This document shows, in pieces, positions 3,588 through 62,190 of a stretch of DNA of 64,000 nucleotides. The stretch is from an uncultured Planctomycetia bacterium (lineage in GTDB: Bacteria > Omnitrophota > Gorgyraeia > Gorgyraeales > Gorgyraeaceae). The position numbers were made by a program, and so were the translations under genes. The notes under the pieces are model-generated. The model worked only from the letters and a program-made list of their open reading frames with translations, ran no database searches and had not been told where the DNA came from. Position 1 is the stretch's first letter, and every line of letters starts with the position of its first letter. The DNA lies in the NCBI GenBank assembly GCA_964415355.1, contig CAYPYS010000006.1:752-64751 (forward strand), in the 5' to 3' direction.

Positions 3588-3628
3588 CTTAAGTTTACAT
3601 TTCAACGTTGTTGAAATGTAAACTTAAG
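3588..3628. repeat. 41-bp palindromic element (19-bp stem, GTT loop), copy 1
   Basis: cttaagtttacatttcaacgttgttgaaatgtaaacttaag read directly; perfect inverted repeat. Confidence 0.95.
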
Positions 3629-3641
3629 AAGATGAATTACG

Positions 3642-4844
3642 ATGAAGATAGCTTTAGTTGTAGATTGGCATTCGGAAAAGATGGGGTATTCTGATAATTT
3701 TTTACCTAAGGCCTTGGCTTCTTTGGGGCATGAGGTTCATCTGATAAGCTCTAATGGCCAGGTGTATTTTACCTCGTCTATTTACAAGGATGTCTTTGAA
3801 CCTTTTTTAGGGCCTCCGATCGTGGATTGCGGTGTGGAGGAACGCGATGGCTATACATTGCATCGTTTACCGCATGCTACTTTTAGAGGAAAAATGCGGA
3901 TAAAGGGCCTTGCGAAGAAATTACGCACGCTGCGACCAGATATAGTGCAAGCTGGCGAATTTACCTGTCTAACAACTTATGAGGCAGCATTTTTAAAGAA
4001 GATGCTAGGATATAAGTTTTTTGTAGAATGTCACGTGCACGCATCTGTTTTTCCTCCAGCTAATGGAATAGCAAGCGCAAAAGAGCGTTTTTATTGGAAT
4101 ATGTACGCCGCCACTATTGGCAAGATGGTAAACCATATGTCTGAGAGATGTTATCCCATAAGCACTGATGCTGCCGACATATTAGCTAAATTTTTTGGAA
4201 TTCAAAAAAATAAGATTGCTATAAGATCTTTAGGGGTAGATACGGATTTATTTAAACCTGTTTCTGATGAGGTTTCTAGGCAGAGACGTAGCAAGATTAG
4301 GAAAGAGCTTGGTTTTTCGGATTCGGATATTGTATGCGTATATACCGGGCGTTTCGAGTCATGCAAGAATCCTTTGTGTCTTGCGCATGCAATAAAAAAG
4401 CTTGCGGCTATAGGGGAGCCTTTTCGGGGTTTATTTATAGGATGTGGTAGCGAGGTTAACAGAGATAAGATATCGGATTCTTCATGCTGTATTACGCATC
4501 CTTTTGTTCCAGTGAAAGAATTACCCAAATTTTATCAGGCTGGCGATATAGCTGTTTGGCCTAAGCAAGAATCAACTAGCCAACTTGACGCAGCAGCATG
4601 TGGCTTACCCCTAATACTTAGCGATAAAGTAAAAGTAAAAGAACGCATAGAGGGCAATGGACTGACTTACAGGGAGGACGACATTGAGGATATGATTCGC
4701 CAATTGCTTGTTCTTCGTGATCCTGTATTACGTCAGAAAATGGGTGCTTGCGGTGCTGATAAAATGCGTAGGTCGTTTAGCTGGCATAACATTGCCAAAG
4801 AATACGCGACTGATTACGAAGATGCCTTGAGGAAAACAGGATGA
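3642..4844 (+). CDS. glycosyltransferase, GT4/GT1-like
   Basis: GT-B C-terminal region (GDIAVWPKQESTSQLDAAACGLPLILSD); weak N-terminal similarity. Confidence 0.5.
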   Translation: MKIALVVDWHSEKMGYSDNFLPKALASLGHEVHLISSNGQVYFTSSIYKDVFEPFLGPPIVDCGVEERDGYTLHRLPHATFRGKMRIKGLAKKLRTLRPDIVQAGEFTCLTTYEAAFLKKMLGYKFFVECHVHASVFPPANGIASAKERFYWNMYAATIGKMVNHMSERCYPISTDAADILAKFFGIQKNKIAIRSLGVDTDLFKPVSDEVSRQRRSKIRKELGFSDSDIVCVYTGRFESCKNPLCLAHAIKKLAAIGEPFRGLFIGCGSEVNRDKISDSSCCITHPFVPVKELPKFYQAGDIAVWPKQESTSQLDAAACGLPLILSDKVKVKERIEGNGLTYREDDIEDMIRQLLVLRDPVLRQKMGACGADKMRRSFSWHNIAKEYATDYEDALRKTG

Positions 4845-5929
4845 AAAAGAAGATTGTTATAGCAGGAGGGGCACGGCCGAATTTTATAAAAATAGTCCCG
4901 CTTATAAGAGAATTTAAAAGATATAAGAAGCATTTTGATGTTTTATTCGTGCACACCGGACAACATTATGATTTTACTATGTCAGAAATATTTTTTCAGG
5001 ACCTATGTATTCCTAAACCTGATGTTTTTTTGAACGCGGGATCTTCGTCTCATGCTATTCAGACGGCCAAGATTATGATGGGCTTCGAGAGGGTTCTTAT
5101 AAAAGAGAAACCTGATCTAATAGTCGTTGTCGGAGACGTTAATTCTACATTGGCGTGTTCTTTGGTTGCGTCAAAATTAAACATCAAGATAGCTCATGTA
5201 GAATCAGGGTTGAGGAGTTTTGATAAAACAATGCCCGAGGAGATCAATCGCATAGTTACAGATAGTCTCTCGGACTATTTATTCGTAACTGAAAAAAGCG
5301 GGATGGAAAATTTAAAGAAAGAAGGAATCGATAAAAAAAAGATATTTTTTGTAGGCAATGTAATGATAGATACATTACTGTTGAACATGCGCAAGATAGA
5401 CAAATCCGATATCCTTAAACAGTTTTCTTTAAGGCCTGATTCTTATGGCGTTTTGACTCTTCATAGACCCAGTAATGTTGACACAGAGGATTCATTTCTT
5501 GAGATATACGCTATTTTAAAATCTCTTTTAGGCAAAATAAGGATAATTTATCCTGTCCATCCACGTTCCATGCGAATGATGAGATCGTACGGTATTTTAG
5601 GCAAGTTCAAAAAGCTAAATAACCTTTGCATGACGAAGCCACTTGGTTACGTCGATTTTATTAAGTTGATAAAAAAATCCAGTTTTGTCCTTACTGATTC
5701 AGGAGGGATACAAGAAGAGGCTGCTTTTATGAGGACTTCCTGTCTTACGTTAAGGGAAAATACAGAACGGCCCGCTACTTTAAAAGGCACAAATTATTTA
5801 GTAGGTAGAAATAAAGATAAGATACTCAGACACGTGAAAAATATATTGAACGGCAAAATAAAAGATGGCAAAATCCCCGAATTATGGGATGGCAAGGCAG
5901 CACGCAGAATAGCCAAGATTCTAATATGA
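4841..5929 (+). CDS. wecB: UDP-N-acetylglucosamine 2-epimerase (non-hydrolysing)
   Basis: ARPNFIKIVPL...HTGQHYD...KPDLIVVVGDVNSTLA...AHVESGLRSFD motifs typical of WecB/MnaA. Confidence 0.8.
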   Translation: MKKKIVIAGGARPNFIKIVPLIREFKRYKKHFDVLFVHTGQHYDFTMSEIFFQDLCIPKPDVFLNAGSSSHAIQTAKIMMGFERVLIKEKPDLIVVVGDVNSTLACSLVASKLNIKIAHVESGLRSFDKTMPEEINRIVTDSLSDYLFVTEKSGMENLKKEGIDKKKIFFVGNVMIDTLLLNMRKIDKSDILKQFSLRPDSYGVLTLHRPSNVDTEDSFLEIYAILKSLLGKIRIIYPVHPRSMRMMRSYGILGKFKKLNNLCMTKPLGYVDFIKLIKKSSFVLTDSGGIQEEAAFMRTSCLTLRENTERPATLKGTNYLVGRNKDKILRHVKNILNGKIKDGKIPELWDGKAARRIAKILI

Positions 5930-8185: not shown

Positions 8186-8226
8186 CTTAAGTTTACATTT
8201 CAACAACGTTGAAATGTAAACTTAAG
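8186..8226. repeat. 41-bp palindromic element, copy 2 (opposite orientation, AAC loop)
   Basis: cttaagtttacatttcaacaacgttgaaatgtaaacttaag. Confidence 0.95.
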
Positions 8227-8700: not shown

Positions 8701-9696
8701 ATGGCTAAAAAAAGTAATAATTATTATAAAAATAAAAACATACTTATTACGGGCGGAAGTGGATATCTAGGGAGTTCTCTTGTAAACGCGTTAAGCCTTA
8801 TTCCGTGCAGGATTACTGTTTTAGACCTGAAACCTGATGCCGTGCGCTCGGTTAAAGATCAGGCTGCAGATATAACATTCAAAGAAGGCGATATCAAGTG
8901 TGAAAAAATATGGTTTAAATACCTGAAAGACATTGATATTATTTTTCACTTTGCAGCCCAGACAAGTTCGCGTATCGCCAATGAAAATCCTATAAGCGAT
9001 CTTAGGAGCAATCTTTTGCCTGTAGTGAACCTTGTCGAGACATGTCATAAAAATGGATTTAAGCCTGATATAATATTTGCTGGCACTGTTACAGAAGCAG
9101 GCCTTACTAATAAGTTGCCAGTTAATGAGAATTTTAAAGATAGACCTATAACGGTATATGATATAAATAAACTCGCTGCCGAGAAGTATCTCCAGTATTA
9201 TGCTAATCAAATAGGAGGGAAGTCTGTGACACTAAGGCTAGCAAATCTGTATGGCCCAGGCACTGCTTGTGCTAGCGTAGATAGAGGCATACTTAACTTG
9301 ATGGTCAGAAAAGCGCTTAAAGGAGAAGGGCTGACTGTTTATGGGGACGGTGCTTTTATAAGAGATTATACGTATATAGATGATGTGGTAGTGGCATTTC
9401 TATTGGCAGGAATAAATATAAATGTTTTATCCGGAAGATATTGTGTTCTCGGTACTGGCGTTGGGCATTCTATCAAGGATATGGCAAATATGATCAAAGA
9501 AGAGGTTTTTGATATGACGAGAAAGGAAACCGTAATCAATTACGTTTCTCCAGACAAAGACCTTGCACCTATCGAAACCAGAAATTTTATAGCTGACACT
9601 ACTTCTTTTAAGGAAGCAACGGGGTGGGTTTCGAAAATAGATCTAAGAAGCGGTATTAGGCAGACGATAGATTATTTTTTAAAGGAGAAGATATAG
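8701..9696 (+). CDS. NAD-dependent epimerase/dehydratase (extended SDR)
   Basis: ILITGGSGYLGSSL Rossmann motif; YDINK YxxxK; ATG at 8701 directly after upstream stop. Confidence 0.65.
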   Translation: MAKKSNNYYKNKNILITGGSGYLGSSLVNALSLIPCRITVLDLKPDAVRSVKDQAADITFKEGDIKCEKIWFKYLKDIDIIFHFAAQTSSRIANENPISDLRSNLLPVVNLVETCHKNGFKPDIIFAGTVTEAGLTNKLPVNENFKDRPITVYDINKLAAEKYLQYYANQIGGKSVTLRLANLYGPGTACASVDRGILNLMVRKALKGEGLTVYGDGAFIRDYTYIDDVVVAFLLAGININVLSGRYCVLGTGVGHSIKDMANMIKEEVFDMTRKETVINYVSPDKDLAPIETRNFIADTTSFKEATGWVSKIDLRSGIRQTIDYFLKEKI

Positions 9697-10664
9697 TGGA
9701 TATATTAATATTAGGAGGCGCTGGGTTTTTAGGGAGTAATTTGGTCAGGAGGTGCCTAAAGGAGCCCGGGAATAGAGTAACTGTCGTGGACTCTTTGGAT
9801 CCCAGGCTAAAAAGCACGTCTGATAATTTGAGAGAAGTTTTACAGCAGATAGAATTTATCAAAGGTGACATGAGGGATTCTGTATTAATGGGAAGGATTG
9901 TAAAAGGCAAAGATGCTATTTTTAATTGCGCAGGCCAAACCTCCCATCCATTATCGTTGACAGATCCATTTTTTGATGTCGAGGTGAATTGCGCGGGCAA
10001 TCTCACGCTTTTAGAAGCCGTAAGGAAATACAATAAAGAAGTGCCCGTGGTCTATACATCAAGCAGTACTGTTATAGGAAAGACACAGGGAGAGGTTGTG
10101 GATGAGACGCATGGCGAATTTCCGCTGGATATCTATTCAGCCAATAAAGGCGTAGCAGAGAAATATTACCGTATTTATAACCGCGTTTATGATTTAAATA
10201 CGCTGTCGCTTCGCTTTGCCAATCTCTACGGCCCCTATGGGAAAGGTTATCCCGAATTTGGGTTTATAAATTATTTTATTGCGTTGGCAATGGCAGACAA
10301 GGATATAGAGATTTTTGGGGAGGGCAGTCAGAATCGAAATGTCATGTACGTCGAAGACGCTGTGGAGCTCATTTATAGATCTATATCGCATAAGGAGATC
10401 TTCGGCAATGTCTATTTTGCAGTGCACAGGGAACATTATTCTGTTTTGGATATCGCAAGGGAGATCGTCTCTGTCTTTAAGAAAGGGAATATTAGAAAAA
10501 TAGCATGGCCTGATGTACGCAAGAGAATAGAGATAGATAATGTAATAATTTCTGCGGAAAAGCTTTGTTATGATATGAAATTTGAACCGAGATATAATCT
10601 CAAAGAAGGGCTTCTTAAGACAAGAGAGATTTTAGAAAAAAATGCACTAATTGAATCTTCTTAA
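9696..10664 (+). CDS. NAD-dependent epimerase/dehydratase (extended SDR)
   Basis: ILILGGAGFLGSNL; YSANK; GTG start preceded by aaaggag RBS. Confidence 0.65.
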   Translation: MDILILGGAGFLGSNLVRRCLKEPGNRVTVVDSLDPRLKSTSDNLREVLQQIEFIKGDMRDSVLMGRIVKGKDAIFNCAGQTSHPLSLTDPFFDVEVNCAGNLTLLEAVRKYNKEVPVVYTSSSTVIGKTQGEVVDETHGEFPLDIYSANKGVAEKYYRIYNRVYDLNTLSLRFANLYGPYGKGYPEFGFINYFIALAMADKDIEIFGEGSQNRNVMYVEDAVELIYRSISHKEIFGNVYFAVHREHYSVLDIAREIVSVFKKGNIRKIAWPDVRKRIEIDNVIISAEKLCYDMKFEPRYNLKEGLLKTREILEKNALIESS

Positions 10665-10700
10665 GTTTACATTTCAACGTTGTTGAAATGTAAACTTAAG
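10660..10700. repeat. 41-bp palindromic element, copy 3
   Basis: perfect copy; its CTTAAG supplies the TAA stop of the upstream gene. Confidence 0.95.
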
Positions 10701-13651: not shown

Positions 13652-13685
13652 GTAGTTTAAAGATGTGGGCCTCGCTTCGTTTATT

Positions 13686-14711
13686 ATGAAGATTCTTTAC
13701 GATAATACTATTTTTAATCTACAGAGATACGGCGGCATATCAAGGTATTTTACCGAGATCATAAGACGCATAGAGGAAGACAAAGATGTAGGCGTAAGCC
13801 TATTTAAAGGTATGGATATCTTGCCTTATAGATTTTTGAATCTCAATAATCCATTTCTAAATCACAAGCTATCTAATCCCAAATGCGATATATATCATCC
13901 TACTTATTATTCATCCATGGTTAAAAGGAGAAAAGGTGTTAAGACGATAGTTACAGTCTACGATATGATACATGAATTATATTTATCTAAGATAGATGAC
14001 CTTAATAAAGACCTGGAGGTCAAAAGAAAGTCTATTCATAATGCAGATCATATAATTTGCATTTCGGAAAAGACAAAGCAGGACCTCCAGGAGATATATA
14101 AGATAAAGGACGATAGCGTATCAGTAGTTTACTTTGGATCGTATGTAGATAGCTTGAAGCAGGAAGGGGAGGGATTCAGACAGCCAGACAAACCATATAT
14201 ATTCTATGTAGGAAAGAGGTCGCACTATAAGAATTTTAGAGTACTGGTTCAGGCTTTTAACTCGTTGGGACTAAAGAAAAAATTTGATCTTATTTGTTCT
14301 GGAGGAGGGCCTTTTTCAAAGCAAGAATTATCAGAGTTTAGAAGAATGAAATTAGAAGACTCGATAAAATATGTTGCAGGCCCAAATGAATTTCTATATC
14401 TATATTACAAAAACGCAGTTTTTTTAGTATACCCCTCGCTTTATGAAGGATTTGGACTGCCTATCCTTGAAGCAATGGGTAATGATTGTGCTGTTATTGC
14501 CGCTAACGCAGGGTCTATTCCCGAAGTTGCAGGTGATTCAGCATTGCTTTTTTCTCCTGAGGACGTGGACGAGCTGTGTCATTGCATGAAAACATTCTTA
14601 AACAATGATTCTGTTAGGAATGATTATATAAAGAGAGGGAAAGAAAGGGTCAAATTATTTTCTTGGGATAAAACAGCGAAGGATACTCTCGAGGTATACA
14701 AGAAGTCTTAA
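13686..14711 (+). CDS. glycosyltransferase GT4 (paralog A)
   Basis: C-terminal YPSLYEGFGLPILEAMGNDCAVIA motif; start chosen by alignment with paralog (MKILYDNT); alternative GTG at 13665. Confidence 0.55.
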   Translation: MKILYDNTIFNLQRYGGISRYFTEIIRRIEEDKDVGVSLFKGMDILPYRFLNLNNPFLNHKLSNPKCDIYHPTYYSSMVKRRKGVKTIVTVYDMIHELYLSKIDDLNKDLEVKRKSIHNADHIICISEKTKQDLQEIYKIKDDSVSVVYFGSYVDSLKQEGEGFRQPDKPYIFYVGKRSHYKNFRVLVQAFNSLGLKKKFDLICSGGGPFSKQELSEFRRMKLEDSIKYVAGPNEFLYLYYKNAVFLVYPSLYEGFGLPILEAMGNDCAVIAANAGSIPEVAGDSALLFSPEDVDELCHCMKTFLNNDSVRNDYIKRGKERVKLFSWDKTAKDTLEVYKKS

Positions 14712-14747
14712 GTTTACATTTCAACGTTGTTGAAATGTAAACTTAAG
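14707..14747. repeat. 41-bp palindromic element, copy 4
   Basis: perfect copy between the two GT4 paralogs; provides TAA stop of upstream gene. Confidence 0.95.
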
Positions 14748-14758
14748 CTGTGAGATAT

Positions 14759-17656: not shown

Positions 17657-17697
17657 CTTAAGTTTACATTTCAACAACGTTAAAGTGTAAACTTAAG
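17657..17697. repeat. 41-bp palindromic element, copy 5 (AAC-loop orientation, 2 arm changes)
   Basis: cttaagtttacatttcaacaacgttaaagtgtaaacttaag. Confidence 0.9.
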
Positions 17698-17708: not shown

Positions 17709-18641
17709 ATGTTACATGATAATATAAAGTGTCTGGTCTGTGATTCCAAGAATTCAAGAGAGTCTATTTATCCGGGTTATTTGTATAAAGATAAAAAATA
17801 TAAGAAGTATCAATGCAAGAGATGCTCTTTTATTTTTATTGATCCCATACCTGATAAAGGTGAAGTAAGAGAAATATATAATAACCATGCTTACTTTGAC
17901 GATTATTTTGTGCCAAATGCCAAAGGGTGTGGATATTTAGATTCTCAGGAGGCTGCTTTCGGCAATGCCGAAAAGACATTGGATAAAATAAAATTATATT
18001 CAACCGGGACTAGGTTGCTTGAGATAGGTTGTGCCGGAGGGTTTTTTCTTAGGGCAGCAAAGAAGTCTGGTTTTGAGGTTACCGGAATAGAAATCAATAA
18101 AGAAATGGTAGAGATCGCCCGTAAAGAATTAGGAGACAAGGTTATTCACGGCGATATCATGGATCTAGAACTCAGGGATGCAAGATTCGATATTGTTTGC
18201 ATGGGCGATGTCTTTGAGCATCTAATCGACATATCTAAAATCACAGGACGTATTAAGGATATTTTAACGGATAGAGGGATTTTATTAATAGAGGGCCCTG
18301 TAGCATATTATAAAACTTTATACAATTTTCTTCTGAAATTGAAATTTTTCTTAAAGAGAAGATGTTACAGTACGAATCCGCCTACACATCTTTGGGAATT
18401 TACGCCTGGGAATCTTAGATTATTTCTGGAGAGACATGGTTTTAAGGTGTTGTATATGGAGCTATGGGAAAGTTCTGCACCTGATAGAAAAGTATTTTTC
18501 AAACAAGACAAGCATGTTTTTTTGAAATCAATTGCCTGGTATATAAAGGCACTCTCTGGTTGTATATCAAATAGCTGGTTTGGCAGGATAATGGGACTAG
18601 GAGACAGGGTAATCATAATAGCATCAAAATCAACTTTTTAA
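17709..18641 (+). CDS. class I SAM-dependent methyltransferase with N-terminal zinc ribbon
   Basis: CLVCDS...CKRCSF; LLEIGCAGGFFL; FDIVCMGDVFEHL. Confidence 0.6.
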   Translation: MLHDNIKCLVCDSKNSRESIYPGYLYKDKKYKKYQCKRCSFIFIDPIPDKGEVREIYNNHAYFDDYFVPNAKGCGYLDSQEAAFGNAEKTLDKIKLYSTGTRLLEIGCAGGFFLRAAKKSGFEVTGIEINKEMVEIARKELGDKVIHGDIMDLELRDARFDIVCMGDVFEHLIDISKITGRIKDILTDRGILLIEGPVAYYKTLYNFLLKLKFFLKRRCYSTNPPTHLWEFTPGNLRLFLERHGFKVLYMELWESSAPDRKVFFKQDKHVFLKSIAWYIKALSGCISNSWFGRIMGLGDRVIIIASKSTF

Positions 18642-18677
18642 GTTTACATTTTAACGTTGTTGAAATGTAAACTTAAG
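18637..18677. repeat. 41-bp palindromic element, copy 6 (C>T variant)
   Basis: tttaagtttacattttaacgttgttgaaatgtaaacttaag. Confidence 0.9.
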
Positions 18678-20603: not shown

Positions 20604-20644
20604 CTTAAGTTTACATTTTAACGTTGTTGAAATGTAAACTTAAA
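20604..20644. repeat. 41-bp palindromic element, copy 7
   Basis: cttaagtttacattttaacgttgttgaaatgtaaacttaa. Confidence 0.9.
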
Positions 20645-26309: not shown

Positions 26310-26350
26310 GATAAGTTTACATTTTAACGTTGTTGAAATGTAAACTTAAG
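26310..26350. repeat. 41-bp palindromic element, copy 8
   Basis: gataagtttacattttaacgttgttgaaatgtaaacttaag. Confidence 0.9.
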
Positions 26351-36741: not shown

Positions 36742-36782
36742 CTTAAGTTTACATTTCAACAACGTTAAAATGTAAACTTAAG
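36742..36782. repeat. 41-bp palindromic element, copy 9 (AAC orientation)
   Basis: cttaagtttacatttcaacaacgttaaaatgtaaacttaag. Confidence 0.9.
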
Positions 36783-38426: not shown

Positions 38427-40258
38427 AATACGAAAATATAATCTGCATATCTTCTATTGACTGGGATTTTATATGGCAGCAGCACCAGTCTATCATGTCC
38501 AGACTCGCGAAAAATGGCAATAAAGTGCTGTTTATCGAGAACACAGGCGTTAGGACGCCTACAATAAAAGATATAGGTAGGATAAGACGGCGTATAATCA
38601 ACTGGTTTAGTAGCAGTAAAGGATTTAGGAAAGAGGCTGAAAACCTCTATGTGTATTCTCCGTTGATATTGCCGTTTCCTTATTTGAGAATCGCACGATT
38701 AGTAAATAGATTTTTATTACTCAGCCCTATAAAAAGATGGATGAAGGCGGTTGATTTCCATGACCCAATCATATGGACATTTTTACCTACCCCTATTACT
38801 TTGGATTTTACGGAAAACATATTTCACAAGGCCCTTGTCTATTACTGTACGGATAAGTTTTCAGCCACTTCAAGATCAGCTAAAAAGATAACCAGGTATG
38901 AGGAAGAAGTTATGAGAAAGGCTGATGCAGTATTTGTAATGGCGAGAGGGATGGTGGATTATTGTGCCAAATTTAACAAAGATGTTATGTGTATACCTAT
39001 GGGCATTGATGTGGGGAGATTTACCGATGATAAGAATGTTGCTGAACCTCTAGAGATAAAGGGAGTCAGTAGGCCTGTGATCGGCTTCATAGGAGGAGTG
39101 AGGAATTCCATAGACAAAGAGCTTGTTGTGTATCTTGCAAAGAGATTCAGCGGCTATACATTTGTTTTCGTGGGACCTATACAGACGGATATATCTAGGT
39201 TAAAGAGGATTGGAAATGTAATATTTACAGGCTCAAAGGATCACGAGGAGCTTAAAAGATATATAAAATTTTTTGACGTATGCATGATACCATACAAGAT
39301 AGACGATTATACGAATAATATTTCACCTGCCAAGCTAAACGAATATCTTATCATGGGAAAACCTGTGGTCTCTACTAGGCTTGGAGAGGTAGAGCGTTTC
39401 AATAGAGAGAATGGCAACATCTTGTTTGTAGGGGGTAATATAGAAGAGTTCGGAGATCTTATAATACAGGCTGTAGAAAAGGATAGTGATATTTTAAGGA
39501 AAAAGAGAAAAGAAGTTGCTTGTAATAATAGTTGGGACAAGAAGACAGAGAAGATGTCCGATATTATAATGACCGTGATTAAAAGAAAAGAAGAAGCGAT
39601 GGAATTAAATTGGAAGACAGGCCTTATGAGGCTATACCGAGAAGCCAGAGGCAAAACAGCAAAAGCTGTTGTTGCTATTGCAGCGTTATGGTTGATAATT
39701 TTTTATTCTCCTTTATTGTGGTTCATTGCTGAGCCTTTAAGGATTTCGCAGGTGCCGCAGAAAACAGACGCTATAGTTGTGTTTGGGGGCGGGGTCGGTG
39801 AGACCGGAAGCCCAGGCAAGAGCACCATAGAGAGAGCAAGATATGCCGTGAGTTTGTATAAAAAGGGGTATGCCGACACAATAATATTCTCATCGGGTTA
39901 TACCTATATATATAACGACGCCGAAAACATGAGGCTTTTTGCTGTCTCTATGGGCGTGCCCAAAAGAGATATTATATTAGAACAGAATGCGGATAGCGCT
40001 TATGAAAATGTAAGATTTTCCAAGGATATAATAAAAAGAAATGACTGGGATTCCATATTACTGGTCAGCTCGCCTTACAATATGCGTCGTGCTTCGCTTG
40101 TTTTTAATAAATGGGATCCTGATATAAAAGTTACCTATACTCCTGTGCCTGATAGCCAGTTTTATGATAAAAGCAAAGGTGTGAGGCTGGAACAGATACG
40201 AGCAATCGCTCACGAGTATTTGGGGATAATATATTATTTAATAAAAGGGCATATCTAA
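38420..40258 (+). CDS. GT4-like glycosyltransferase fused to C-terminal DUF218 (ElyC/YdcF/SanA-like) domain
   Basis: N-terminal 400 aa GT-B-like; C-terminus TDAIVVFGGGVGETGSPG...IIFSSGYTY...LLVSSPYNMRRA matches DUF218 signature. Confidence 0.5.
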   Translation: MLKYENIICISSIDWDFIWQQHQSIMSRLAKNGNKVLFIENTGVRTPTIKDIGRIRRRIINWFSSSKGFRKEAENLYVYSPLILPFPYLRIARLVNRFLLLSPIKRWMKAVDFHDPIIWTFLPTPITLDFTENIFHKALVYYCTDKFSATSRSAKKITRYEEEVMRKADAVFVMARGMVDYCAKFNKDVMCIPMGIDVGRFTDDKNVAEPLEIKGVSRPVIGFIGGVRNSIDKELVVYLAKRFSGYTFVFVGPIQTDISRLKRIGNVIFTGSKDHEELKRYIKFFDVCMIPYKIDDYTNNISPAKLNEYLIMGKPVVSTRLGEVERFNRENGNILFVGGNIEEFGDLIIQAVEKDSDILRKKRKEVACNNSWDKKTEKMSDIIMTVIKRKEEAMELNWKTGLMRLYREARGKTAKAVVAIAALWLIIFYSPLLWFIAEPLRISQVPQKTDAIVVFGGGVGETGSPGKSTIERARYAVSLYKKGYADTIIFSSGYTYIYNDAENMRLFAVSMGVPKRDIILEQNADSAYENVRFSKDIIKRNDWDSILLVSSPYNMRRASLVFNKWDPDIKVTYTPVPDSQFYDKSKGVRLEQIRAIAHEYLGIIYYLIKGHI

Positions 40259-40292
40259 GTTTACATTTTAACGTTGTTGAAATGTAAACTTG
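40255..40292. repeat. 41-bp palindromic element, copy 10 (slightly truncated)
   Basis: ctaagtttacattttaacgttgttgaaatgtaaacttg; provides TAA stop of upstream gene. Confidence 0.85.
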
Positions 40293-40296
40293 TCTT

Positions 40297-46637: not shown

Positions 46638-47701
46638 TGAAAATAGGGATAGATATTCGTCCGACACTCAAGAAGACAACAGGCATAGGCAAGTATACCC
46701 TTCATCTGATCAATGCCCTTGCAGAAGTAGATCCCGAAAATAGATATTTTCTCTACAGCAGAAAAAAGATATTGGATTTTAAAAGGCGGTTGCCAAGGTT
46801 GCCCGGCGCTAATTTTTCGCATCGCGTGGATCATTTTAAAAAAGGCGTGAGTGCAGCGATGCCGGAGATAGATATTTTCCACACCTCTTCTTATGACCTG
46901 GATAGGCCGAAAAAGGCAAAATATATCGTCACTGTCCATGATGTAATTATAAAGGCATATCCGCACGGCCATAGCGAGAAGACTATAAGAGAAACAGATG
47001 AAAAATTAAAAAAGATTTTAGGCGAGGCAGATGTGTTGGTGGCGGATTCCCATAGCACCAAAGCGGATCTGATGAGGTTTTATGATGTGGCCGAGTCAAG
47101 GGTAGCGGTAATCTATCCCGGAGTTAATTTTACGGAATACGGAATACGGGATGCGGAATGCGAAGACTATATTCTCTTTGTCGGGACGCTTGAGCCGCGA
47201 AAGAATGTAGATGGAGTCATAAAGGCGTATAGCTGGCTGAGAAAAAACTCAGGCGTGAGGCATAAGCTTTATATAGCGGGCATGAAGGGATGGATGTACG
47301 AAAATATTTTTAAGGAATACGAGAAGAGCGAATTTAAAAAAGATATTATCTTTAAAGGTTATGTAAGCGAACGAGAACTGAGCGCGTTGTACCAGAATGC
47401 GTCTTTATTCGTGTATCCGTCCTTTTATGAAGGTTTCGGGTTTCCTGTGATAGAGGCGTTTAGCTATGGAGTACCTGTTGTTACTTCGAAGACTTCTTCT
47501 TGCGGAGAGGTAGCAGGCGATAACGCATTATTGGTAGACCCTTCTAATATAAAGGAGATTAGAGAAGCAATGGCAAGACTCATTGCCGATAAAAACTTAA
47601 GGGAGCAGCTGGCGAGGCGCGGCCGAGAGAGAGCGAAGCAATTCACCTGGCGCAACACCGCCTCCGCCTTAAGTATACATTTCAACAACGTTAAAGTGTA
47701 A
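46637..47701 (+). CDS. glycosyltransferase GT4
   Basis: YPSFYEGFGFPVIEAFSYGVPVV; last 10 codons lie inside a 41-bp element. Confidence 0.7.
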   Translation: MKIGIDIRPTLKKTTGIGKYTLHLINALAEVDPENRYFLYSRKKILDFKRRLPRLPGANFSHRVDHFKKGVSAAMPEIDIFHTSSYDLDRPKKAKYIVTVHDVIIKAYPHGHSEKTIRETDEKLKKILGEADVLVADSHSTKADLMRFYDVAESRVAVIYPGVNFTEYGIRDAECEDYILFVGTLEPRKNVDGVIKAYSWLRKNSGVRHKLYIAGMKGWMYENIFKEYEKSEFKKDIIFKGYVSERELSALYQNASLFVYPSFYEGFGFPVIEAFSYGVPVVTSKTSSCGEVAGDNALLVDPSNIKEIREAMARLIADKNLREQLARRGRERAKQFTWRNTASALSIHFNNVKV

Positions 47702-47707
47702 AGTTAG
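47668..47707. repeat. 41-bp palindromic element, copy 11 (subfamily 2, tatac/ctaac variant)
   Basis: cttaagtatacatttcaacaacgttaaagtgtaaagttag. Confidence 0.85.
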
Positions 47708-47709
47708 GG

Positions 47710-48263: not shown

Positions 48264-48303
48264 CTTAAGTATACTTTTAACATTGTTGAAATGTATACTT
48301 AAG
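48264..48303. repeat. 41-bp palindromic element, copy 12 (compensatory tatac variant)
   Basis: cttaagtatacttttaacattgttgaaatgtatacttaag. Confidence 0.85.
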
Positions 48304-48560: not shown

Positions 48561-48565
48561 GTGCA

Positions 48566-49452: not shown

Positions 49453-49476
49453 ATTCCCGCTTTCGCGGGAATGACA
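49452..49476. repeat. REP2 copy
   Basis: gattcccgctttcgcgggaatgaca. Confidence 0.9.
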
Positions 49477-49480
49477 TGTG

Positions 49481-49519
49481 TTTAAGTTTACTTTTAACAT
49501 TGTTGAAAGTAAACTTAAG
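49481..49519. repeat. 41-bp palindromic element, copy 13 (short variant)
   Basis: tttaagtttacttttaacattgttgaaagtaaacttaag. Confidence 0.85.
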
Positions 49520-50480: not shown

Positions 50481-51278
50481 ATGCAGTCATTGGTCAGAGT
50501 GGATAGGCTTTCAGGAGGCTATTATAAAAAACTTGTAATAAAAGATGCCCTTTTTGAGATAAAAAAAGGGGATTTTTTGGGGATCATAGGGCCCAATGGT
50601 TCAGGTAAATCAACCCTTTTAAAGTTAATGACAAGGGTCTTGTCTCCGCAGTCAGGCAGTATTTTTCTTGAAGAAAAAGATATAAGAGGCATGGGGCTAA
50701 AAGAATTTTGCAGAAAGGTAGCGTTTGTGCCCCAGGATACGCTGATTAATTTTTCATTCAGCGTTGAAGAGATAGTGCTTATGGGCAGGATCCCGCATCT
50801 CAAGAGGATGCAGTTTGAGACAAAGAAGGACTTTTCAATAGCTTGCAATGCGCTTAAGCTGACAGATACCTTATATATAAAGGAGAAGGAGATAAGCCAG
50901 CTTAGCGCTGGCGAGCGCCAGAGAGTCATAATCGCAAAGGCGCTTGCGCAGGAGCCAATGCTTTTATTTCTGGACGAACCTACTTCCCATCTGGACATAG
51001 GCCACCAGGTGCAGATATTGGATCTATTGAAGAGGCTGAATAGAGAGAGCGGGCTTACAGTGGTTATGGTGATGCACGACCTGAATCTTGCGAGCGAATA
51101 TTGCAATAGGATAATGTTGTTTGATGAAGGCCGCATTTTTAAAGAGGGGACTCCTGAGCAAGTCCTGACCTATCAGAACATAGAAGCAGTATACAAGACA
51201 GTCGTGGTAGTGAAGAAGAGCCCTGTTTCTTCCAAGCCGTACGTAATACTGGTGTCGGGGAATAAGAGCATAGCCTAA
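50481..51278 (+). CDS. btuD: ABC transporter ATP-binding protein (BtuD/FecE-like)
   Basis: GIIGPNGSGKST Walker A; LSAGERQRV signature; LLFLDEPTSHLD Walker B. Confidence 0.8.
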   Translation: MQSLVRVDRLSGGYYKKLVIKDALFEIKKGDFLGIIGPNGSGKSTLLKLMTRVLSPQSGSIFLEEKDIRGMGLKEFCRKVAFVPQDTLINFSFSVEEIVLMGRIPHLKRMQFETKKDFSIACNALKLTDTLYIKEKEISQLSAGERQRVIIAKALAQEPMLLFLDEPTSHLDIGHQVQILDLLKRLNRESGLTVVMVMHDLNLASEYCNRIMLFDEGRIFKEGTPEQVLTYQNIEAVYKTVVVVKKSPVSSKPYVILVSGNKSIA

Positions 51279-51420
51279 GTTTACGCTTTAACATTGTTGA
51301 AGTAAAACCAGAGACGTTTACCGAGCCAATCGGGAACCTGTCTCATGTTTAAGGACAGGTTCCCGATTGGCTCGGTAAACGTCTCTAAAATACTTTAACA
51401 TTGTTGAAATGTAAACTTAG
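51274..51420. repeat. composite element: two 41-bp-element cores flanking a 33-bp-arm perfect inverted repeat (13-nt loop)
   Basis: ctaagtttacgctttaacattgttgaagtaaaac | agagacgtttaccgagccaatcgggaacctgtc-tcatgtttaag-gacaggttcccgattggctcggtaaacgtctct | aaaatactttaacattgttgaaatgtaaacttag. Confidence 0.85.
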
Positions 51421-51430
51421 ACAAGGTGAG

Positions 51431-53554: not shown

Positions 53555-53559
53555 CGGCG

Positions 53560-53598
53560 CTAACTTTACACTTCAACAACGTTAAAGTGTAAAGTTAG
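53560..53598. repeat. 41-bp palindromic element, copy 15 (subfamily 2, ctaac termini)
   Basis: ctaactttacacttcaacaacgttaaagtgtaaagttag. Confidence 0.85.
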
Positions 53599-53606
53599 AG
53601 ATCAAT

Positions 53607-55056: not shown

Positions 55057-56918
55057 GAATATATAGCGTAGCATTAAGCCTGATTTTCTTGTGTTTGCAT
55101 TGCTTGGTTTGCAATTTTGAAGTCGAGGCAAAAGAAGAGAATTCAGATTATTATAATATTGATTTAGAGAAGATTATCATTACCCCATCCAAGATAGAGC
55201 AGGGATATAAATACTCTACTCAAAACATAAGTATTGTCGGTAAGGAAGATATCGAAGCTAGTGCCGTTACTGAGGTAACAGAGATCCTGGACCTGTTGCC
55301 TTCAGTAGATATATTAGAGTACGGTTCTGCTGGTTCCACGAAGACTGTCCACACGAGAGGCGCTTCTTCTTCCCAGGTCCTGACCTTGATAGACGGAAGA
55401 CCTGTCAATACGCCCAGAGACGGAGTCACAGATTTTAATCAGATCCCTATTTCAAATATTGAAAGGATAGAGGTGCTGCGTGGGCCTGCCAGTAGTATGT
55501 ATGGGGCGAATGCCGTGGGAGGCGTTATAAATATAATAACAAAGAGCGGCGAAAAAAAGGCGCGCACTGAGATGCTGAATAAATTTGGCTCTTTCAATAC
55601 AAAGTTTTCCTCTTTTTCGCACGGCCGCAAGATAGATGAAATAGATTATTTTATATCCCATGATTACCTGGCTTCTCACGGCCACAGAGATAATGCTGAT
55701 TATTTAAGCAATAATGTGAATTGGAAATTCGGCTATGATCTGAATCCTGAGAATCATATGGGTCTTTCCGCAGGATATTATAATTCAGAGGCAGGTACGC
55801 CAGGGTTGCTCTCCAATACAGATCTTGATGACAGGCAGGAGAATTTTAAGAAATACATAGATTTTACTTATAACGGAAAGATGTTTGAAGGACAGGATAT
55901 TGTTTTGAAATTATTTCAGAATAGTGACAGGCTTGAATTTATAGAGACATTTGACCCTCTGGATAAAGATACTCACCATACCAAGATCTACGGATTGGAT
56001 ACCCAGATATCGCAGACTTTTTTCGATATATTTCGTACGGCATTAGGCTGCAGCTATCAAGAGCACAATCTAAATAGTTCAACCAGCAGCAAGCATACAT
56101 ATAATGCAAGGGCATTTAATTTTGAGACAGAGGTCGATATATTAGACAAAAGCACCTTGAAATTTGGCGCTCGCTGGGATGACTATTCAAATTTTGGAGA
56201 TAAGATAAGTCCGAGCGCAAGTTTTAATTTTTGGTTATTTGATAAAATAAAGGCCCATGCCTTGGCCGCCAAGTCTTTTAGGGCGCCTACCTTTAATGAC
56301 CTCTATTGGCCCAGGGAAGACTGGGGGATCTGGGGAGGAGTAGAGGGTAATTCCAGTCTTGGCCCTGAAAAGGCGGAGTCTTATGAGATTGGAATAAGCG
56401 GATATTTTTTAGAAAAGATAAAGACAGACATCACTTTGTTTAGAACAAACTTTGAGGATCTGATAGAATGGACCGTTGATGATGCCTGGTGGTGGCGGCC
56501 TCAAAATACGAGTTCTGCTGTAACAAAAGGCCTTGAGCTCGAGACAGAAGTCGTTCTAAAGGATAATCTCAAAGCCAATTTTAATTATACTTATCTGGAA
56601 TCCAAAAACAAGAACACGAGAAAATGGTTGATATATCGTCCGCGTCATTTATATAAGCTAAGATTGACATTTTCACCTTTTCCTAAATATGAACTTGGGG
56701 CGAACGCTATATTCAAGACGAAGAGGTTTGCTAATGCTGCGAATACGAGCATCCTCGATCATTATTTTATAGTAAATTCGAACCTGTCTTATAAAATAAA
56801 TGACAGCGTCAGTGTCTTATTAGAGGCTAAAAACATATTTGATAAATATTATGAGGAGGAAAGGGATTATTCAATGCCGGGCCGCGCCTTCTACACCGGC
56901 ATTAAATTGGGCTTCTAA
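55053..56918 (+). CDS. btuB: TonB-dependent outer-membrane receptor (vitamin B12/BtuB-like by context)
   Basis: signal peptide; plug VEVLRGPASSMYGANAVGGVINIITK; beta-barrel; C-terminal Phe. Confidence 0.8.
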   Translation: MRIYSVALSLIFLCLHCLVCNFEVEAKEENSDYYNIDLEKIIITPSKIEQGYKYSTQNISIVGKEDIEASAVTEVTEILDLLPSVDILEYGSAGSTKTVHTRGASSSQVLTLIDGRPVNTPRDGVTDFNQIPISNIERIEVLRGPASSMYGANAVGGVINIITKSGEKKARTEMLNKFGSFNTKFSSFSHGRKIDEIDYFISHDYLASHGHRDNADYLSNNVNWKFGYDLNPENHMGLSAGYYNSEAGTPGLLSNTDLDDRQENFKKYIDFTYNGKMFEGQDIVLKLFQNSDRLEFIETFDPLDKDTHHTKIYGLDTQISQTFFDIFRTALGCSYQEHNLNSSTSSKHTYNARAFNFETEVDILDKSTLKFGARWDDYSNFGDKISPSASFNFWLFDKIKAHALAAKSFRAPTFNDLYWPREDWGIWGGVEGNSSLGPEKAESYEIGISGYFLEKIKTDITLFRTNFEDLIEWTVDDAWWWRPQNTSSAVTKGLELETEVVLKDNLKANFNYTYLESKNKNTRKWLIYRPRHLYKLRLTFSPFPKYELGANAIFKTKRFANAANTSILDHYFIVNSNLSYKINDSVSVLLEAKNIFDKYYEEERDYSMPGRAFYTGIKLGF

Positions 56919-56953
56919 CTTTACATTTCAACAACGTTAAAGTGTAAAGTTAG
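56915..56953. repeat. 41-bp palindromic element, copy 16 (subfamily 2)
   Basis: ctaactttacatttcaacaacgttaaagtgtaaagttag; supplies TAA stop of btuB. Confidence 0.85.
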
Positions 56954-57001
56954 GCGCGATTGATTTGACAAAGCAAAGGGCAATTGTTATTATATAGACA
57001 A

Positions 57002-57670: not shown

Positions 57671-57695
57671 GATTCCCGCTTGCGCGGGAATGACA
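57671..57695. repeat. REP2 copy (one substitution)
   Basis: gattcccgcttgcgcgggaatgaca. Confidence 0.85.
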
Positions 57696-57712
57696 AAAAG
57701 CGCAAAAAAAGC

Positions 57713-58105: not shown

Positions 58106-59773
<1,668 letters not shown>

Positions 59774-59807
59774 TTTAAGCAGGTAAGAGACAAGTAATAG
59801 ACCCCGT

Positions 59808-59848
59808 TGGTAATAAACATTGCCAACGGGGTTTTTTTATTTTCACTC
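59808..59848 (+). terminator. Rho-independent terminator
   Basis: ccccgttggtaataaacattgccaacgggg followed by ttttttta. Confidence 0.75.
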
Positions 59849-59850
59849 CC

Positions 59851-59889
59851 CTAACTTTACACTTTAACGTTGTTGAAATGTAAACTTAG
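59851..59889. repeat. 41-bp palindromic element, copy 17 (subfamily 2, GTT loop; flanked by cccc/gggg and T-run)
   Basis: ctaactttacactttaacgttgttgaaatgtaaacttag. Confidence 0.85.
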
Positions 59890-59899
59890 GGGTTTTGTT

Positions 59900-59928
59900 T
59901 TGACAATAGTTATTGCCTATGATATATT
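59900..59928 (+). promoter_or_regulatory. sigma70-like promoter TTGACA-17-TATATT
   Basis: read directly; upstream of the moxR operon. Confidence 0.5.
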
Positions 59929-60915: not shown

Positions 60916-60919
60916 GCAT

Positions 60920-62149
60920 ATGTTTACCCCAAAAAGCATATTTCTGCTCATAGTAACCATCGCCCTCCTTGCCATTTCATGGAATACAGACATAACAATG
61001 GTGTACATTTTTTTTACAGTGACGCTTGTTATGTTTGTGCTTTCTTTTGTACACCTCCAGATCACTAAGCCTGATATAGTTATTTCTCGTGAATTATATG
61101 ACACTGCATATGAAGATGATATGCTGAGTGTAAATCTAGATGTGCATAATAAACGTGGTTTCGCTGTTCATTTTTTTGAGATCTGCGATTTTTTTCCAGG
61201 TGCTCCTTTGGATAAAAAAGAGGCGTCTTTATTTGTTTTAAAAATGGAGTCGAATGAGCGCAAAAAAATAAACTATATAACGACCTGTTACAAAAGAGGG
61301 CTCTGGAGGATCGGCCCTATATCAGTTATTTCACAGGACGCGCTCGGGTTTTTTAAGACAAAAAAGCTATTAAAGATTTATTCGGATATTCTGGTTTATC
61401 CGAGATTGTTCAGGGTATTTGCTTTTCCGCCGCTCGCGAGCGGCTCTGCGTCCTGGGTAGGCGTTGAGACATCTAAGATAAGCGGCGACAGTCATGAATT
61501 TTTTGGTATAAGGGAATACCAGCGCGGAGACATGATCAGTCGTATTCATTGGCCTTCGTCGGCAAAGCACAACAAGCTTATCGTGAAACAGTTTGAACGA
61601 AATGCTGTCCAGGAAGTGACGATAGCGTTTGATTTAAAGAAAGGCCATGACATTGGAACCGGCAGAGAGACGACGTTGGAATATGCAGTCAAGATAGCAG
61701 GGTCTATTGCGTCGTATCTTTTAAACGAAGGCGCGCTCGTGCAGATGGTCGGGTATGGCAAGGAGTCGTCGATCCTGCCTTTAGGAAAAGGTGAGTCGCA
61801 CAAGTATAAGATCCTGGAATATCTGGCAAAGATTCAGGCCGACGGCGATTTTAAACTCAGCCAGGCTCTGGATGAAGCGAGTTTTGTTGTTCCTCATCGC
61901 TCAACATTGGTGACTATTATACTGGATAATGATATAGATAGCCTGACCAGCCTTATTCAGTTTAAGGTCAAAGGTATAAAACTCATAATTATCGTGCTGG
62001 CTACTTCGACATTCGGTCCTATTGAAGAAAAGGATTTTATGGATGCGGAACGGGCCAGGAAATTTGACGAGGCCTTAGCCGGACTCGAGGCGTATGTATA
62101 CAAGATCTCCAAAGGAGAGGTCCTGGAGAAAAAGTTTGAGACACTGTAA
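60920..62149 (+). CDS. DUF58 (vWA-like, MoxR-associated) protein
   Basis: N-terminal TM helices; REYQRGDMISRIHWPSSAK DUF58 signature. Confidence 0.8.
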   Translation: MFTPKSIFLLIVTIALLAISWNTDITMVYIFFTVTLVMFVLSFVHLQITKPDIVISRELYDTAYEDDMLSVNLDVHNKRGFAVHFFEICDFFPGAPLDKKEASLFVLKMESNERKKINYITTCYKRGLWRIGPISVISQDALGFFKTKKLLKIYSDILVYPRLFRVFAFPPLASGSASWVGVETSKISGDSHEFFGIREYQRGDMISRIHWPSSAKHNKLIVKQFERNAVQEVTIAFDLKKGHDIGTGRETTLEYAVKIAGSIASYLLNEGALVQMVGYGKESSILPLGKGESHKYKILEYLAKIQADGDFKLSQALDEASFVVPHRSTLVTIILDNDIDSLTSLIQFKVKGIKLIIIVLATSTFGPIEEKDFMDAERARKFDEALAGLEAYVYKISKGEVLEKKFETL

Positions 62150-62152
62150 GTT

Positions 62153-62190
62153 CTAACTTTACATTTCAACAACGTTAAAGTGTAAAGTTA
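62153..62190. repeat. 41-bp palindromic element, copy 18 (subfamily 2)
   Basis: ctaactttacatttcaacaacgttaaagtgtaaagtta. Confidence 0.85.

Follow-up and report, generated by a model that had tools for sequence, protein, structure and literature searches.

The 64-kb stretch analysed here, referred to as the window (64,000 nt of contig CAYPYS010000006.1, assembly GCA_964415355.1, from an uncultured Planctomycetia bacterium that GTDB places in the Omnitrophota), carries a dense family of 41-bp hairpins, CTTAAGTTTACATTTCAAC-GTT-GTTGAAATGTAAACTTAAG. This element is probably a non-autonomous mobile repeat of the repetitive extragenic palindrome (REP) type in Omnitrophota, paired with a dedicated, apparently single-copy transposase of the Y1/HUH class that resembles the REP-associated tyrosine transposases (RAYTs). 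About one gap in three between genes carries a copy. Its members form one family whose hairpin covaries, its distribution is extragenic and genome-wide, and its copies are insertions with respect to syntenic relatives, without target duplication. In several genomes the RAYT-like gene is itself flanked by inverted master copies of the element. A search of the literature on Omnitrophota repeats and palindromes, and on the sequence itself, found no earlier description.

The 41-mer had 13 strand-matches in the window at up to three mismatches and its 19-nt arm had 26, and all shuffled sequences had 0. A covariance model built from 40 distinct variants and applied at E<=1 returned 19 places in the window (Table 1) and none besides, with 0 expected by chance; this is exactly the list of about 19 hairpins given in the first-pass annotation, whose description of a 19-bp stem, a 3-nt loop and both orientations also holds. 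Self-complementarity, counted by position from the centre, is 97-100% at positions 2-18, about 80% at 19-20 and at background at 21. Because palindromy falls to background at position 21, the unit is delimited as a 19-bp stem and a 3-nt loop. A looser arm search with a listing of flanks found that each arm has its partner 3 nt away, with the composite at 51274-51421 as the sole exception, and apparent solo arms proved to be parts of longer variants. Four copies are perfect 41-mers (3588, 8186, 10660 and 14707); the others differ by 1-6 changes, mostly compensated or wobble. Overall, 17 copies count as intact and 2 as degenerate. Among the distinct variants, 96.1% of cells are paired, a level reached by 0 of 500 shuffles, while slid registers give 20-52% pairing; in 7 of the 19 pairs both sides have changed (G-C/C-G, U-A/C-G, U-A/A-U). 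The stem is low in G+C (21-32%), there is no T-run in the element itself, and the window copies fold as RNA at -18.8 to -23.5 kcal/mol (z -5.5 to -9.8). Oriented by the loop, RTT lies on the + strand in 12 copies and on the - strand in 7. At position 5 from the centre, the RTT-loop strand shows only T-A, T.G and C-G, and the opposite mismatch (C.A) is almost absent. Density in the window is about one copy per 3.4 kb. In the composite, two copies in direct orientation enclose an unrelated palindrome and the whole 148 nt folds as a single hairpin (-57.8 kcal/mol); the enclosed 71-bp palindrome (51313-51383) has no second copy in any sequence searched.

The element is not confined to this organism or to the glycan cluster that makes up much of the window. 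A scan of one genome per species found it in three metagenome-assembled genomes (MAGs): CAYULJ01, which was deposited as 'Planctomycetia' and is called the MAG below, Omnitrophota UBA10183, and a third. In these three genomes the loop is ATT, and ACAC stands in place of ACAT. The covariance model found about 114 places in 343 kb of MAG loci, a density that is biased upward by the choice of loci for containing the element. Genes flanked by the element in the MAG include smpB, rpmB (L28), rpsG (S7), tmk, rpiB, uppP, coaX and mnmA, and eight copies lie in the second, non-glycan part of the window, among the cobalamin, TonB, GroEL and MoxR genes. Because these genes are flanked as well, the element is an extragenic repeat of the whole genome and is not peculiar to glycan operons. 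The first-pass annotation had offered the segmentation of a giant polycistronic glycan mRNA as a possible role, and this proposal is not supported, given the genome-wide distribution and the mixed orientation.

Within genomes, the copies occupy a narrow range of positions. With simple longest-ORF calls in the fetched loci (ORF, open reading frame), occupied junctions of the MAG loci were 77 of 226 among co-directional gene pairs, 9 of 26 among convergent pairs and 0 of 10 among divergent pairs; the corresponding count for co-directional junctions of the window is 17 of 53. A first context pass scored 1 of 127 copies inside an ORF. The upstream stop codon is often part of the repeat: 49 long ORFs end at the TAA of the CTTAAG foot and 22 end deeper in the element, and a further 26 have their stop 0-5 nt upstream. 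Window copies that contribute the stop codon with their foot are 10660, 14707, 18637, 40254, 51274 and 56914. Downstream, a ribosome-binding site (RBS) and start codon mostly follow within about 2-30 nt, and the foot TTAAG often runs on into GAGG to give a TAAGGAGG-like RBS. The claim that every copy stands 3-30 nt from the next start codon is accordingly correct for most copies, but not for 48264, 56914 and 59850, which precede strong sigma-70-like promoters (at 48264 a promoter plus a cobalamin riboswitch); those after 56914 and 59850 are among the best of the region. At two further copies, the upstream ORF stops deep in the 3' arm of 47668 and the FecCD permease ORF as called (ATG 49476) reads through the copy at 49481-49519. 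For this permease, a start past the element, with the RBS AAGGGAG, looks more likely than ATG 49476. Relative to transcription, the two orientations occur in a ratio of 61:36 (p=0.014), and in a ratio of 41:18 among wobble copies.

Several simple functions for the hairpin were tried and rejected. The promoter-like arrangement TTTACA-N17-TGTAAA is without key -10 bases, and both a host terminator and a DNA uptake sequence conflict with the extragenic placement seen in the first context pass and with the lack of lone arms. A terminator scan of 44-64 kb called no element copy and did call the genuine terminators at 59799-59834 and 48565-48589. Unconditional termination is also unlikely because copies sit inside essential operons. 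In the Rfam search of the window, the cobalamin riboswitch was the only match at gathering score, and the element matched no family.

The sequence variants point to copying. Two exact 41-mers occur in the MAG as 29 copies on 24 loci and 24 copies on 22 loci, and doubly compensated subfamilies (GTTCACAC/GTGTGAAC, AACTTT/AAAGTT and GTATAC) are spread over contigs. A 59-bp asymmetric variant, in which the left inner arm is replaced by TACCACTTCGTGGCACAGGCTTYCCC with its CCAC-TTCG-GTGG mini-hairpin, is present in nine near-identical copies dispersed over the MAG (Table 1). Exact copies and compensated subfamilies dispersed in this way argue for copying and not for independent evolution in place. 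No target-site duplication was found at any boundary, and none stood above the shuffled control. The feet themselves covary as inverted repeats: AACAAC/GTTGTT in UBA10183, TATAAC/GTTATA in L024 and CTAAC/GTTAG in the window.

Insertion can be read directly from syntenic relatives. A tblastn search of the window proteins against the MAG loci gave one weak match, and synteny was obtained through GroEL homologues. The window GroEL (58130-59773) has best matches at 78-95% identity which, where named, are Candidatus Omnitrophota/Omnitrophica proteins; it is 86% identical to GroEL of Ca. Gorgyraea atricola. Seven relatives, with GroEL 83-90% identical, keep the order cobO...TonB receptor-groES-groEL-moxR-DUF58-tgpA-guaB-dnaE-hupB-hisS. 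Where the window has copy 53559 between cobT and cobS, these genes overlap without an element in L059, the only fetched relative carrying them. DUF58 and tgpA, separated in the window by copy 62152, abut or overlap without an element in L058, L059, L061, L064 and L065, and in L058 and L060 the groEL terminator is directly followed by the MoxR promoter, with copy 59850 lying in between in the window. Since syntenic relatives are free of the element at the same junctions, these window copies were inserted. The relatives are not devoid of the wider family. L058, L061, L063, L064 and L065 carry 1-6 copies per 12-21 kb, with the same feet, (C)TTAA[G/C]TT[T/C]ACA, the same central ATTG and a different, sometimes non-complementary apex; L059 and L060 have no copy at the covariance-model threshold. 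At some junctions, different species each carry their own genome-specific variant, namely those after cobO and after the groEL terminator in both the window and L061, and those after tgpA and after dnaE in both L058 and L061. The window strain itself is also present in JGI and ENA metagenomes at 99.1-100% identity, and 12 other contigs of this strain are collinear with the window over that range of identity, with no polymorphism for the presence or absence of a copy and no exchange of modules.

The candidate cognate enzyme was found among single genes bracketed by two copies. Twenty such genes were scanned, of which 19 were housekeeping genes and the exception, L040:1560-2351, encodes a 263-aa protein that matches Pfam Y1_Tnp (35.5 bits, cut-off 23) and has a C-terminal helix-turn-helix (HTH). 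The protein contains the HUH motif NHIHLL and the tyrosine motif SLYIHHNPV, and NHxH and Y-I-H-x-N-P are invariant in 14 homologues. Its sole NCBIfam match is NF047646, 'REP-associated tyrosine transposase', over profile positions 6-146 of 146. The top match in the PDB (by Foldseek) of an AlphaFold model (pLDDT 79.6) is 4er8_A, the E. coli RAYT with a REP hairpin (TM-score 0.76, rmsd 2.3 A, 148 columns); TnpA structures of IS608, IS200 and ISDra2 rank lower (TM-score 0.57-0.69, rmsd about 5.7-6.4 A). A sequence-profile search of the PDB with the enzyme returned HTH domains only. A phmmer search with E. coli RayT against 2,723 six-frame ORFs gave no match, a false negative, as Pfam found L040:1560-2351. 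One other bracketed gene had been considered, a 174-aa ORF at 47729-48253 of the window between two inverted copies, and proved to be the corrinoid adenosyltransferase CobO.

The flanks of the enzyme gene tie it to the repeat. In L040, an inverted copy (1499-1539) ends 20 nt before the start codon and a canonical copy (2334-2374) overlaps the stop codon; these are the two commonest 41-mers of that MAG, and the flanking 16-mers are its most frequent 16-mers, with 104 occurrences in 326.5 kb of element-selected loci. The protein of locus L155 (P0122) is 75% identical to that of L040, and its gene is flanked in the same way, inverted upstream and canonical downstream, by the GTATAC-foot variant; in L072 (P0188, 51% identical) the gene lies between two inverted copies of a variant whose apex is 13 nt long. 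In each of these three loci the enzyme gene is flanked by the variant of its own genome, the upstream copy being inverted and the downstream copy canonical and overlapping the stop codon. L072 has three copies in 20.8 kb, two of them flanking the transposase gene. Loci L156 and L157 (P0123) come from the SUTE22/SCRA20 sample series, in which the window strain is found as well. Both carry, upstream and inverted, a copy whose AAC/GTT loop is of the window type (213-253 in L156), and this upstream flank is the only one on the L156 contig. The full-length cluster member P0241 (263 aa) is present on 11 contigs in NCBI, JGI and ENA, and its C-terminus, LLKYTF*, indicates that the gene reads into the CTTAAGTATACATTTTAA foot, from which a downstream flank may be deduced. 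The first-pass annotation had listed a REP-like role among several possibilities, with a search for a RAYT-like IS200/IS605 transposase gene as the check. That search was productive: a Y1 gene with inverted element flanks exists in related Omnitrophota genomes, and its upstream flanking copy is seen in the window's own sample series. As a separate observation, L156 and L157, two independent assemblies, end at the same nucleotide, with the tail ...KKIVCARFAG*; this divergent tail holds a CCCG-TTTTG-CGGG hairpin where P0241 continues into the HTH domain, and it may mean either that the assembly is chimeric at a repeat or that part of the population carries a disrupted allele.

The enzyme gene also behaves as a resident of a fixed locus. 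In all four loci and genomes it lies directly downstream of thrC, and a profile search of 734 kb found one enzyme gene per organism. Between L072 and L040, identity is 82% for ThrC and 51% for the transposases. Omnitrophota have many homologues (1,220 proteins at E<=1e-5, a large share of them annotated 'transposase [Candidatus Omnitrophica bacterium]'). Many stand alone on contigs of about 950-1000 bp, which is what assembly breaks at flanking high-copy repeats would yield. A metagenome scan with the RAYT profile gave mostly distant homologues among the matches listed, of which only L076, L078 and L079 had related flanking hairpins (with TTTAC-type feet).

Taken as a REP/RAYT-type system, the element may work as follows. 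The enzyme would recognise the hairpin that one strand forms when single-stranded, reading the conserved feet together with the asymmetric RTT-G loop, and its catalytic tyrosine would cleave, so that new copies are seeded in either orientation without target duplication. Recognition of single-stranded DNA, the chemistry of cleavage and any current activity are proposed here by analogy with IS200/IS605 and RAYT biochemistry, the strand-specific wobble pattern being the sole indirect support for recognition in single-stranded form. Copies would persist only where they are harmless, between a stop codon and the next RBS or promoter or between convergent genes, and the apparent 'punctuation' of operons would follow from this survival. 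A transcribed copy would place a stable RNA stem of 19 bp on the stop codon or just behind it and probably modulates 3'-end stability, read-through or processing locally, as a secondary effect; like every effect at the RNA level, this is suggested by analogy. The RNase III processing and attenuation named in the first-pass annotation would be plausible side effects of such a stem.

Several observations weigh against this reading. No transposase gene was found in the window by the profile search, and P0123 and P0241 are assigned to the window organism by the samples they share with it and by the loop variant, with no shared contig. The element is without the unpaired GTAG/CGTC tag of the described REP superfamilies, and one long perfect hairpin takes the place of a short imperfect one or of a doublet. 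The enzyme has an extra C-terminal HTH domain, and its NF047646 score (53-64 bits) is under the curated cut-off of 80. With about one third of junctions occupied, a gene in the MAG, taken by itself, would be flanked on both sides by chance with a probability of about 0.1. The uniformity of the 12 same-strain contigs gives no sign of current activity, and the junctions occupied in several species by genome-specific variants could mean selection for a host function.

That last point leads to the possibility that the hairpins are primarily host RNA elements, such as RNase III or other processing sites, 3' stabilisers, partial attenuators or devices of translational coupling, that are kept by selection. 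Stable stems (-19 to -23.5 kcal/mol) do lie at or a few nt from stop codons and never in divergent promoter regions, the mild orientation bias is toward the strand that gives G.U in mRNA as its only common non-Watson-Crick pair, the foot is often continued into an RBS, and the junctions after cobO, the groEL terminator and dnaE are occupied in different species by genome-specific variants. For E. coli REPs, moreover, a role as local, context-dependent terminators and as stabilisers has been reported (bioRxiv 10.64898/2026.03.23.713779). We nevertheless consider this explanation unlikely: about 37% of copies have the opposite orientation, with loop and wobble wrong for mRNA; dozens share all 41 nt and the asymmetric subfamilies occur at dispersed sites, a signature of copying; close relatives have no element at the same junctions; and canonical terminators are present separately while copies stand inside essential ribosomal-protein operons. 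Such a function would also be compatible with a REP/RAYT system, as an exaptation on top of it, and does not replace it. The strand-specificity of the wobble, the asymmetric loop and the occurrence of both gene orientations agree better with a copying machinery than with an RNA function that depends on orientation, while the sense-orientation bias of the wobble copies and the repeated occupancy of junctions leave some room for host co-option. An extended form of co-option, to which we give little credence, is that in small-celled Omnitrophota the repeat has become a genome-wide operon punctuation mark that is renewed and homogenised by a domesticated RAYT. The mark would overlap the stop codon before it and adjoin the RBS behind it at about a third of all gene junctions, those of ribosomal-protein operons included. 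If so, upstream translation termination, mRNA processing or stability, and downstream initiation would be coupled through one sequence, and the lasting occupation of orthologous junctions alongside concerted evolution of the sequence inside each genome would be explained.

The remaining explanations fare worse, and the readings as a miniature inverted-repeat transposable element (MITE), CRISPR or integron, set aside in the first-pass annotation, each fail a defining feature. A minimal MITE, with terminal inverted repeats moved by a DDE transposase of the IS630/Tc1 or IS5 type at TA or TTAA targets, would account for conserved outer feet, (C)TTAAGTTTACA, around an inner part that differs between genomes, and the TA/TTAA in the foot could mask a fixed target duplication. 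It is very improbable. No variable target-site duplication accompanies the copies; covariation makes the foot an inverted and not a direct repeat, which elsewhere reads AACAAC/GTTGTT or TATAAC/GTTATA with no TTAA; the solo arms come from longer variants and not from an insertion sequence (IS); and neither a full-length IS with these ends nor a DDE transposase was seen, a cognate Y1 enzyme having been found instead. Even less credible are recombination sites, integron attC-like or Xer/dif-like, bounding exchangeable glycosyltransferase cassettes, despite palindromes directly past stop codons that separate co-directional genes, an inner stem (YTTYAAC...GTTRAAR) loosely like integron core and inverse-core sites (6 of 7 positions), and a clustering of the near-identical copies in the low-GC glycan region. 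Both orientations are found (12 and 7 copies in the window), housekeeping genes are flanked genome-wide, the AAC/GTT boxes lie at the apex of the hairpin where attC has them at the base, and no integrase or Xer-type gene occurs among the scanned window ORFs, the called genes of related contigs and the 20 MAG ORFs. The exchange of glycosyltransferase cassettes put forward in the first-pass annotation likewise finds no integrase and no cassette variation, the same-strain contigs from other samples being collinear without module differences. There is just as faint a prospect that the palindromes are double-stranded-DNA sites of an abundant dimeric protein, a nucleoid-associated protein or global regulator. 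The half-sites, TAAGTTTACA, are indeed conserved at a fixed 19-bp spacing across genomes, even where inner self-complementarity is lacking (L061), but compensatory changes preserve pairing and not half-site sequence, the asymmetric loop is conserved, the T-A/T.G/C-G wobble with C.A almost absent points to a single-stranded hairpin, and promoter-bearing divergent regions are free of the element.

Table 1. Positions of the 41-bp element, its 59-bp variant and other repeats in the window and, where a locus is named, in related loci
Feature	Position	Strand	Remarks
Element copy	3588..3628	+	perfect, loop GTT; 7 nt past stop of ORF 2213-3580; 67 bits
Element copy	8186..8226	-	perfect, inverted; loop AAC on +
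Element copy	10660..10700	+	perfect; foot TAA is stop of ORF 9696-10664
Element copy	14707..14747	+	perfect; between tandem GT4 paralogues; foot TAA is stop of ORF 13665-14711
Element copy	17657..17697	-	one wobble and one mismatch; 3 nt past upstream stop
Element copy	18637..18677	+	T.G wobble; foot TAA is stop of ORF 17709-18641
Element copy	20604..20644	+	1 nt past stop of Asn-synthase-like ORF 18692-20602
Element copy	26310..26350	+	directly abuts stop of ORF 25614-26309
Element copy	36742..36782	-	top model score of window, 68.2 bits
Element copy	40254..40294	+	outer foot degenerate; foot TAA is stop of ORF 38420-40258; next ATG 2 nt downstream
Element copy	47668..47708	-	GTATAC foot; between GT4 gene and cobO; upstream ORF stop deep in 3' arm
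Element copy	48264..48303	+	GTATAC foot, loop ATT; after cobO; then T-run, promoter-like TTGACA-N17-TATAAA, cobalamin riboswitch
Element copy	49481..49519	+	degenerate, 1-nt deletion; between btuF and fecCD; copy of second repeat family precedes
Element copy	51274..51312	+	degenerate; foot TAA is stop of ABC ATPase ORF; left part of composite 148-nt hairpin
Palindrome unrelated to element	51313..51383	.	perfect, 71 bp, 30-bp arms, 11-nt loop; between two degenerate copies
Element copy	51384..51421	+	degenerate; right part of composite hairpin
Element copy	53559..53599	-	CTAAC/GTTAG foot; between cobT and cobS
Element copy	56914..56954	-	foot TAA is stop of TonB-dependent receptor gene; then 11/12 promoter match 56965-56993
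Element copy	59850..59890	+	between groEL intrinsic terminator (59799-59834) and MoxR promoter (59900-59928)
Element copy	62152..62192	-	between DUF58 and TgpA_N genes
59-bp variant	L004 2621-2690; L010 137-205; L016 449-517; L026 1229-1297 and ~543(-); L029 2852-2920; L044; L049 4414-4482; L022 ~1983
Second repeat family	42493-42518, 43292-43317, 43861-43886, 47710-47735, 49452-49477, 57671-57696, 63866-63891	+
Second repeat family	63822-63847	-
GTAG-type palindromes	L059 9514-9555, 15960-15987; L060 11658-11691; L049 ~780-830; L033 ~600-660; L017 ~1-45

Every long ORF of the window is on the + strand and the GC skew is strongly positive. The first 42 kb form the glycan cluster, with GT2 and GT4 glycosyltransferases, epimerases, MBOAT and methyltransferase genes; the rest contains cobO, btuF-fecCD-ABC, cobCUTS, a TonB-dependent receptor, groES/EL and MoxR-DUF58 genes. 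G+C is 34-41% at 1-42000 and 40-47% at 42000-64000, and the copies in the low-GC part are nearly identical with CTTAAG feet, those in the second part being more diverged, with CTAAC/GTTAG and GTATAC feet. The shift in G+C together with the near-identity of the copies suggests younger insertions in the glycan region or its recent acquisition. The tandem paralogous GT4 genes at 13665-14711 and 14750-15778 share 79-81% DNA identity over aligned stretches, and a perfect 41-bp copy is their only separator. A cobalamin riboswitch (48350-48524; Rfam RF00174, 88.7 bits) followed by the intrinsic terminator at 48565-48589 lies upstream of the btuF-fecCD-ABC and cobCUTS salvage genes, with copy 48264 and its promoter-like site directly upstream. 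At 43473-43586, 3.5 tandem 33-bp repeats inside a 144-aa ORF (43424-43858, no Pfam match on record) encode a repeated 11-residue motif of the KEIKGYIDSSL type. A viral-contig scan gave 0 matches.

Other repeats accompany the element. A second family, GATTCCCGCTTTCGCGGGAATGACA, forms a hairpin with a G+C-rich stem of 8 bp and a loop of 4 nt; seven of its eight window copies are on the + strand. It often adjoins the 41-bp element or precedes promoters (57713, 63900), two or three of its copies lie inside or at the ends of called ORFs, and it is also found beside the 41-bp element in the MAG (L009 ~3361, L039 ~2715). GTAG-type palindromes, CCACAnnGTAGGGGAnC...GnTCCCCTACnnTGTGG, which are classical tagged REPs, occur in the relatives and the MAG, sometimes nested in or fused to the 41-bp element; their presence beside it indicates that several REP families coexist in these genomes. 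The MoxR 5' leaders of L060 (~11830-11930) and L058 (~2250-2340) carry short tandem repeats of the GTTGCGTAAAG and GGGTTATTG types and their reverse complements, which are absent from the window.

These data document a dense, untagged REP family and its cognate enzyme in an uncultured phylum, the Omnitrophota. The enzyme is unusual in its length, its HTH domain and its conserved locus, and the co-evolution of repeat and enzyme is easily traced through a conserved foot, a conserved asymmetric loop, a variable apex and genome-specific variants. There are practical consequences as well: the repeat breaks short-read assemblies, leaving the many short contigs that carry the transposase gene only, it causes spurious ORF extensions and start-site calls, and it may lead annotators to mistake parts of glycan clusters for 'cassettes'.

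Most work on REP/RAYT systems concerns Proteobacteria, and what these systems do is still debated. REPs within about 15 nt of a stop codon reportedly stall terminating ribosomes, in work by Liang, Rudd and Deutscher in Mol Cell in 2015. The density of the element in the window is several-fold above that of REPs in E. coli. With E. coli REPs and their bacterial interspersed mosaic elements (BIMEs), and with RayT/YafM (PMC2817692; 4ER8), the system shares a high-copy extragenic palindrome near stop codons in co-directional and convergent gaps, an apparently single-copy Y1/HUH gene that lies between two inverted copies and whose product has a predicted fold best matching 4er8, and flanks that are two different abundant variants, as are the Y and Z2 units at yafM. 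It differs from the E. coli REP in having no unpaired GTAG head and in its 19-bp near-perfect helix with a 3-nt loop in place of a shorter imperfect palindrome; its copies are mostly solitary, unlike the BIME clusters, and the enzyme is about 100 residues longer than RayT, with a C-terminal HTH of the resolvase type.

In Pseudomonas, and apparently here, a single-copy RAYT stands at a conserved locus; in both, its flanking 16-mers are the most abundant, and sequence variants form a population within each genome, compensated subfamilies included (PMC3116915; PMC5581495); RAYTs in general are single-copy, vertically transmitted genes with highly abundant flanking 16-mers (PMC5581495). The Pseudomonas REPIN consists of two small-hairpin REPs and a spacer, whereas the Omnitrophota element is one hairpin whose 19-nt arms are not self-palindromic. 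The superfamilies of GTAG/CGTC-tagged REPs (PMC3733652) are likewise 20-40 bp long, lie downstream of coding regions between unidirectional or convergent ORFs and occur as several types per genome, as do the GTAG-type and second hairpin families beside the 41-bp element. The consensus here has no GTAG/CGTC, nothing outside the stem is conserved, and the only conserved unpaired bases are those of the RTT loop. The occupation of about one third of junctions is very dense by comparison with described REP families.

More distant systems share single features. The TnpA enzymes of IS200/IS605 elements (IS608, ISDra2) are also Y1/HUH proteins (Pfam Y1_Tnp) acting on one-strand hairpins with no target-site duplication, but the enzyme gene described here is not multiplied with the ends, its flanking hairpins are inverted and not in the same orientation, and its product has a lower structural likeness to IS608 TnpA than to RAYT. 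Integron attC sites and MITEs such as Correia elements are short palindromes between genes as well, and attC sites are also single-stranded hairpins after cassette ORFs; the Omnitrophota element is set apart from them by mixed orientation, the lack of an integrase, of a target duplication and of a parent IS, and the flanking of housekeeping genes. On these comparisons we regard the element as a new system of the REP/RAYT type, one without a GTAG tag, in a phylum for which no earlier description was found.

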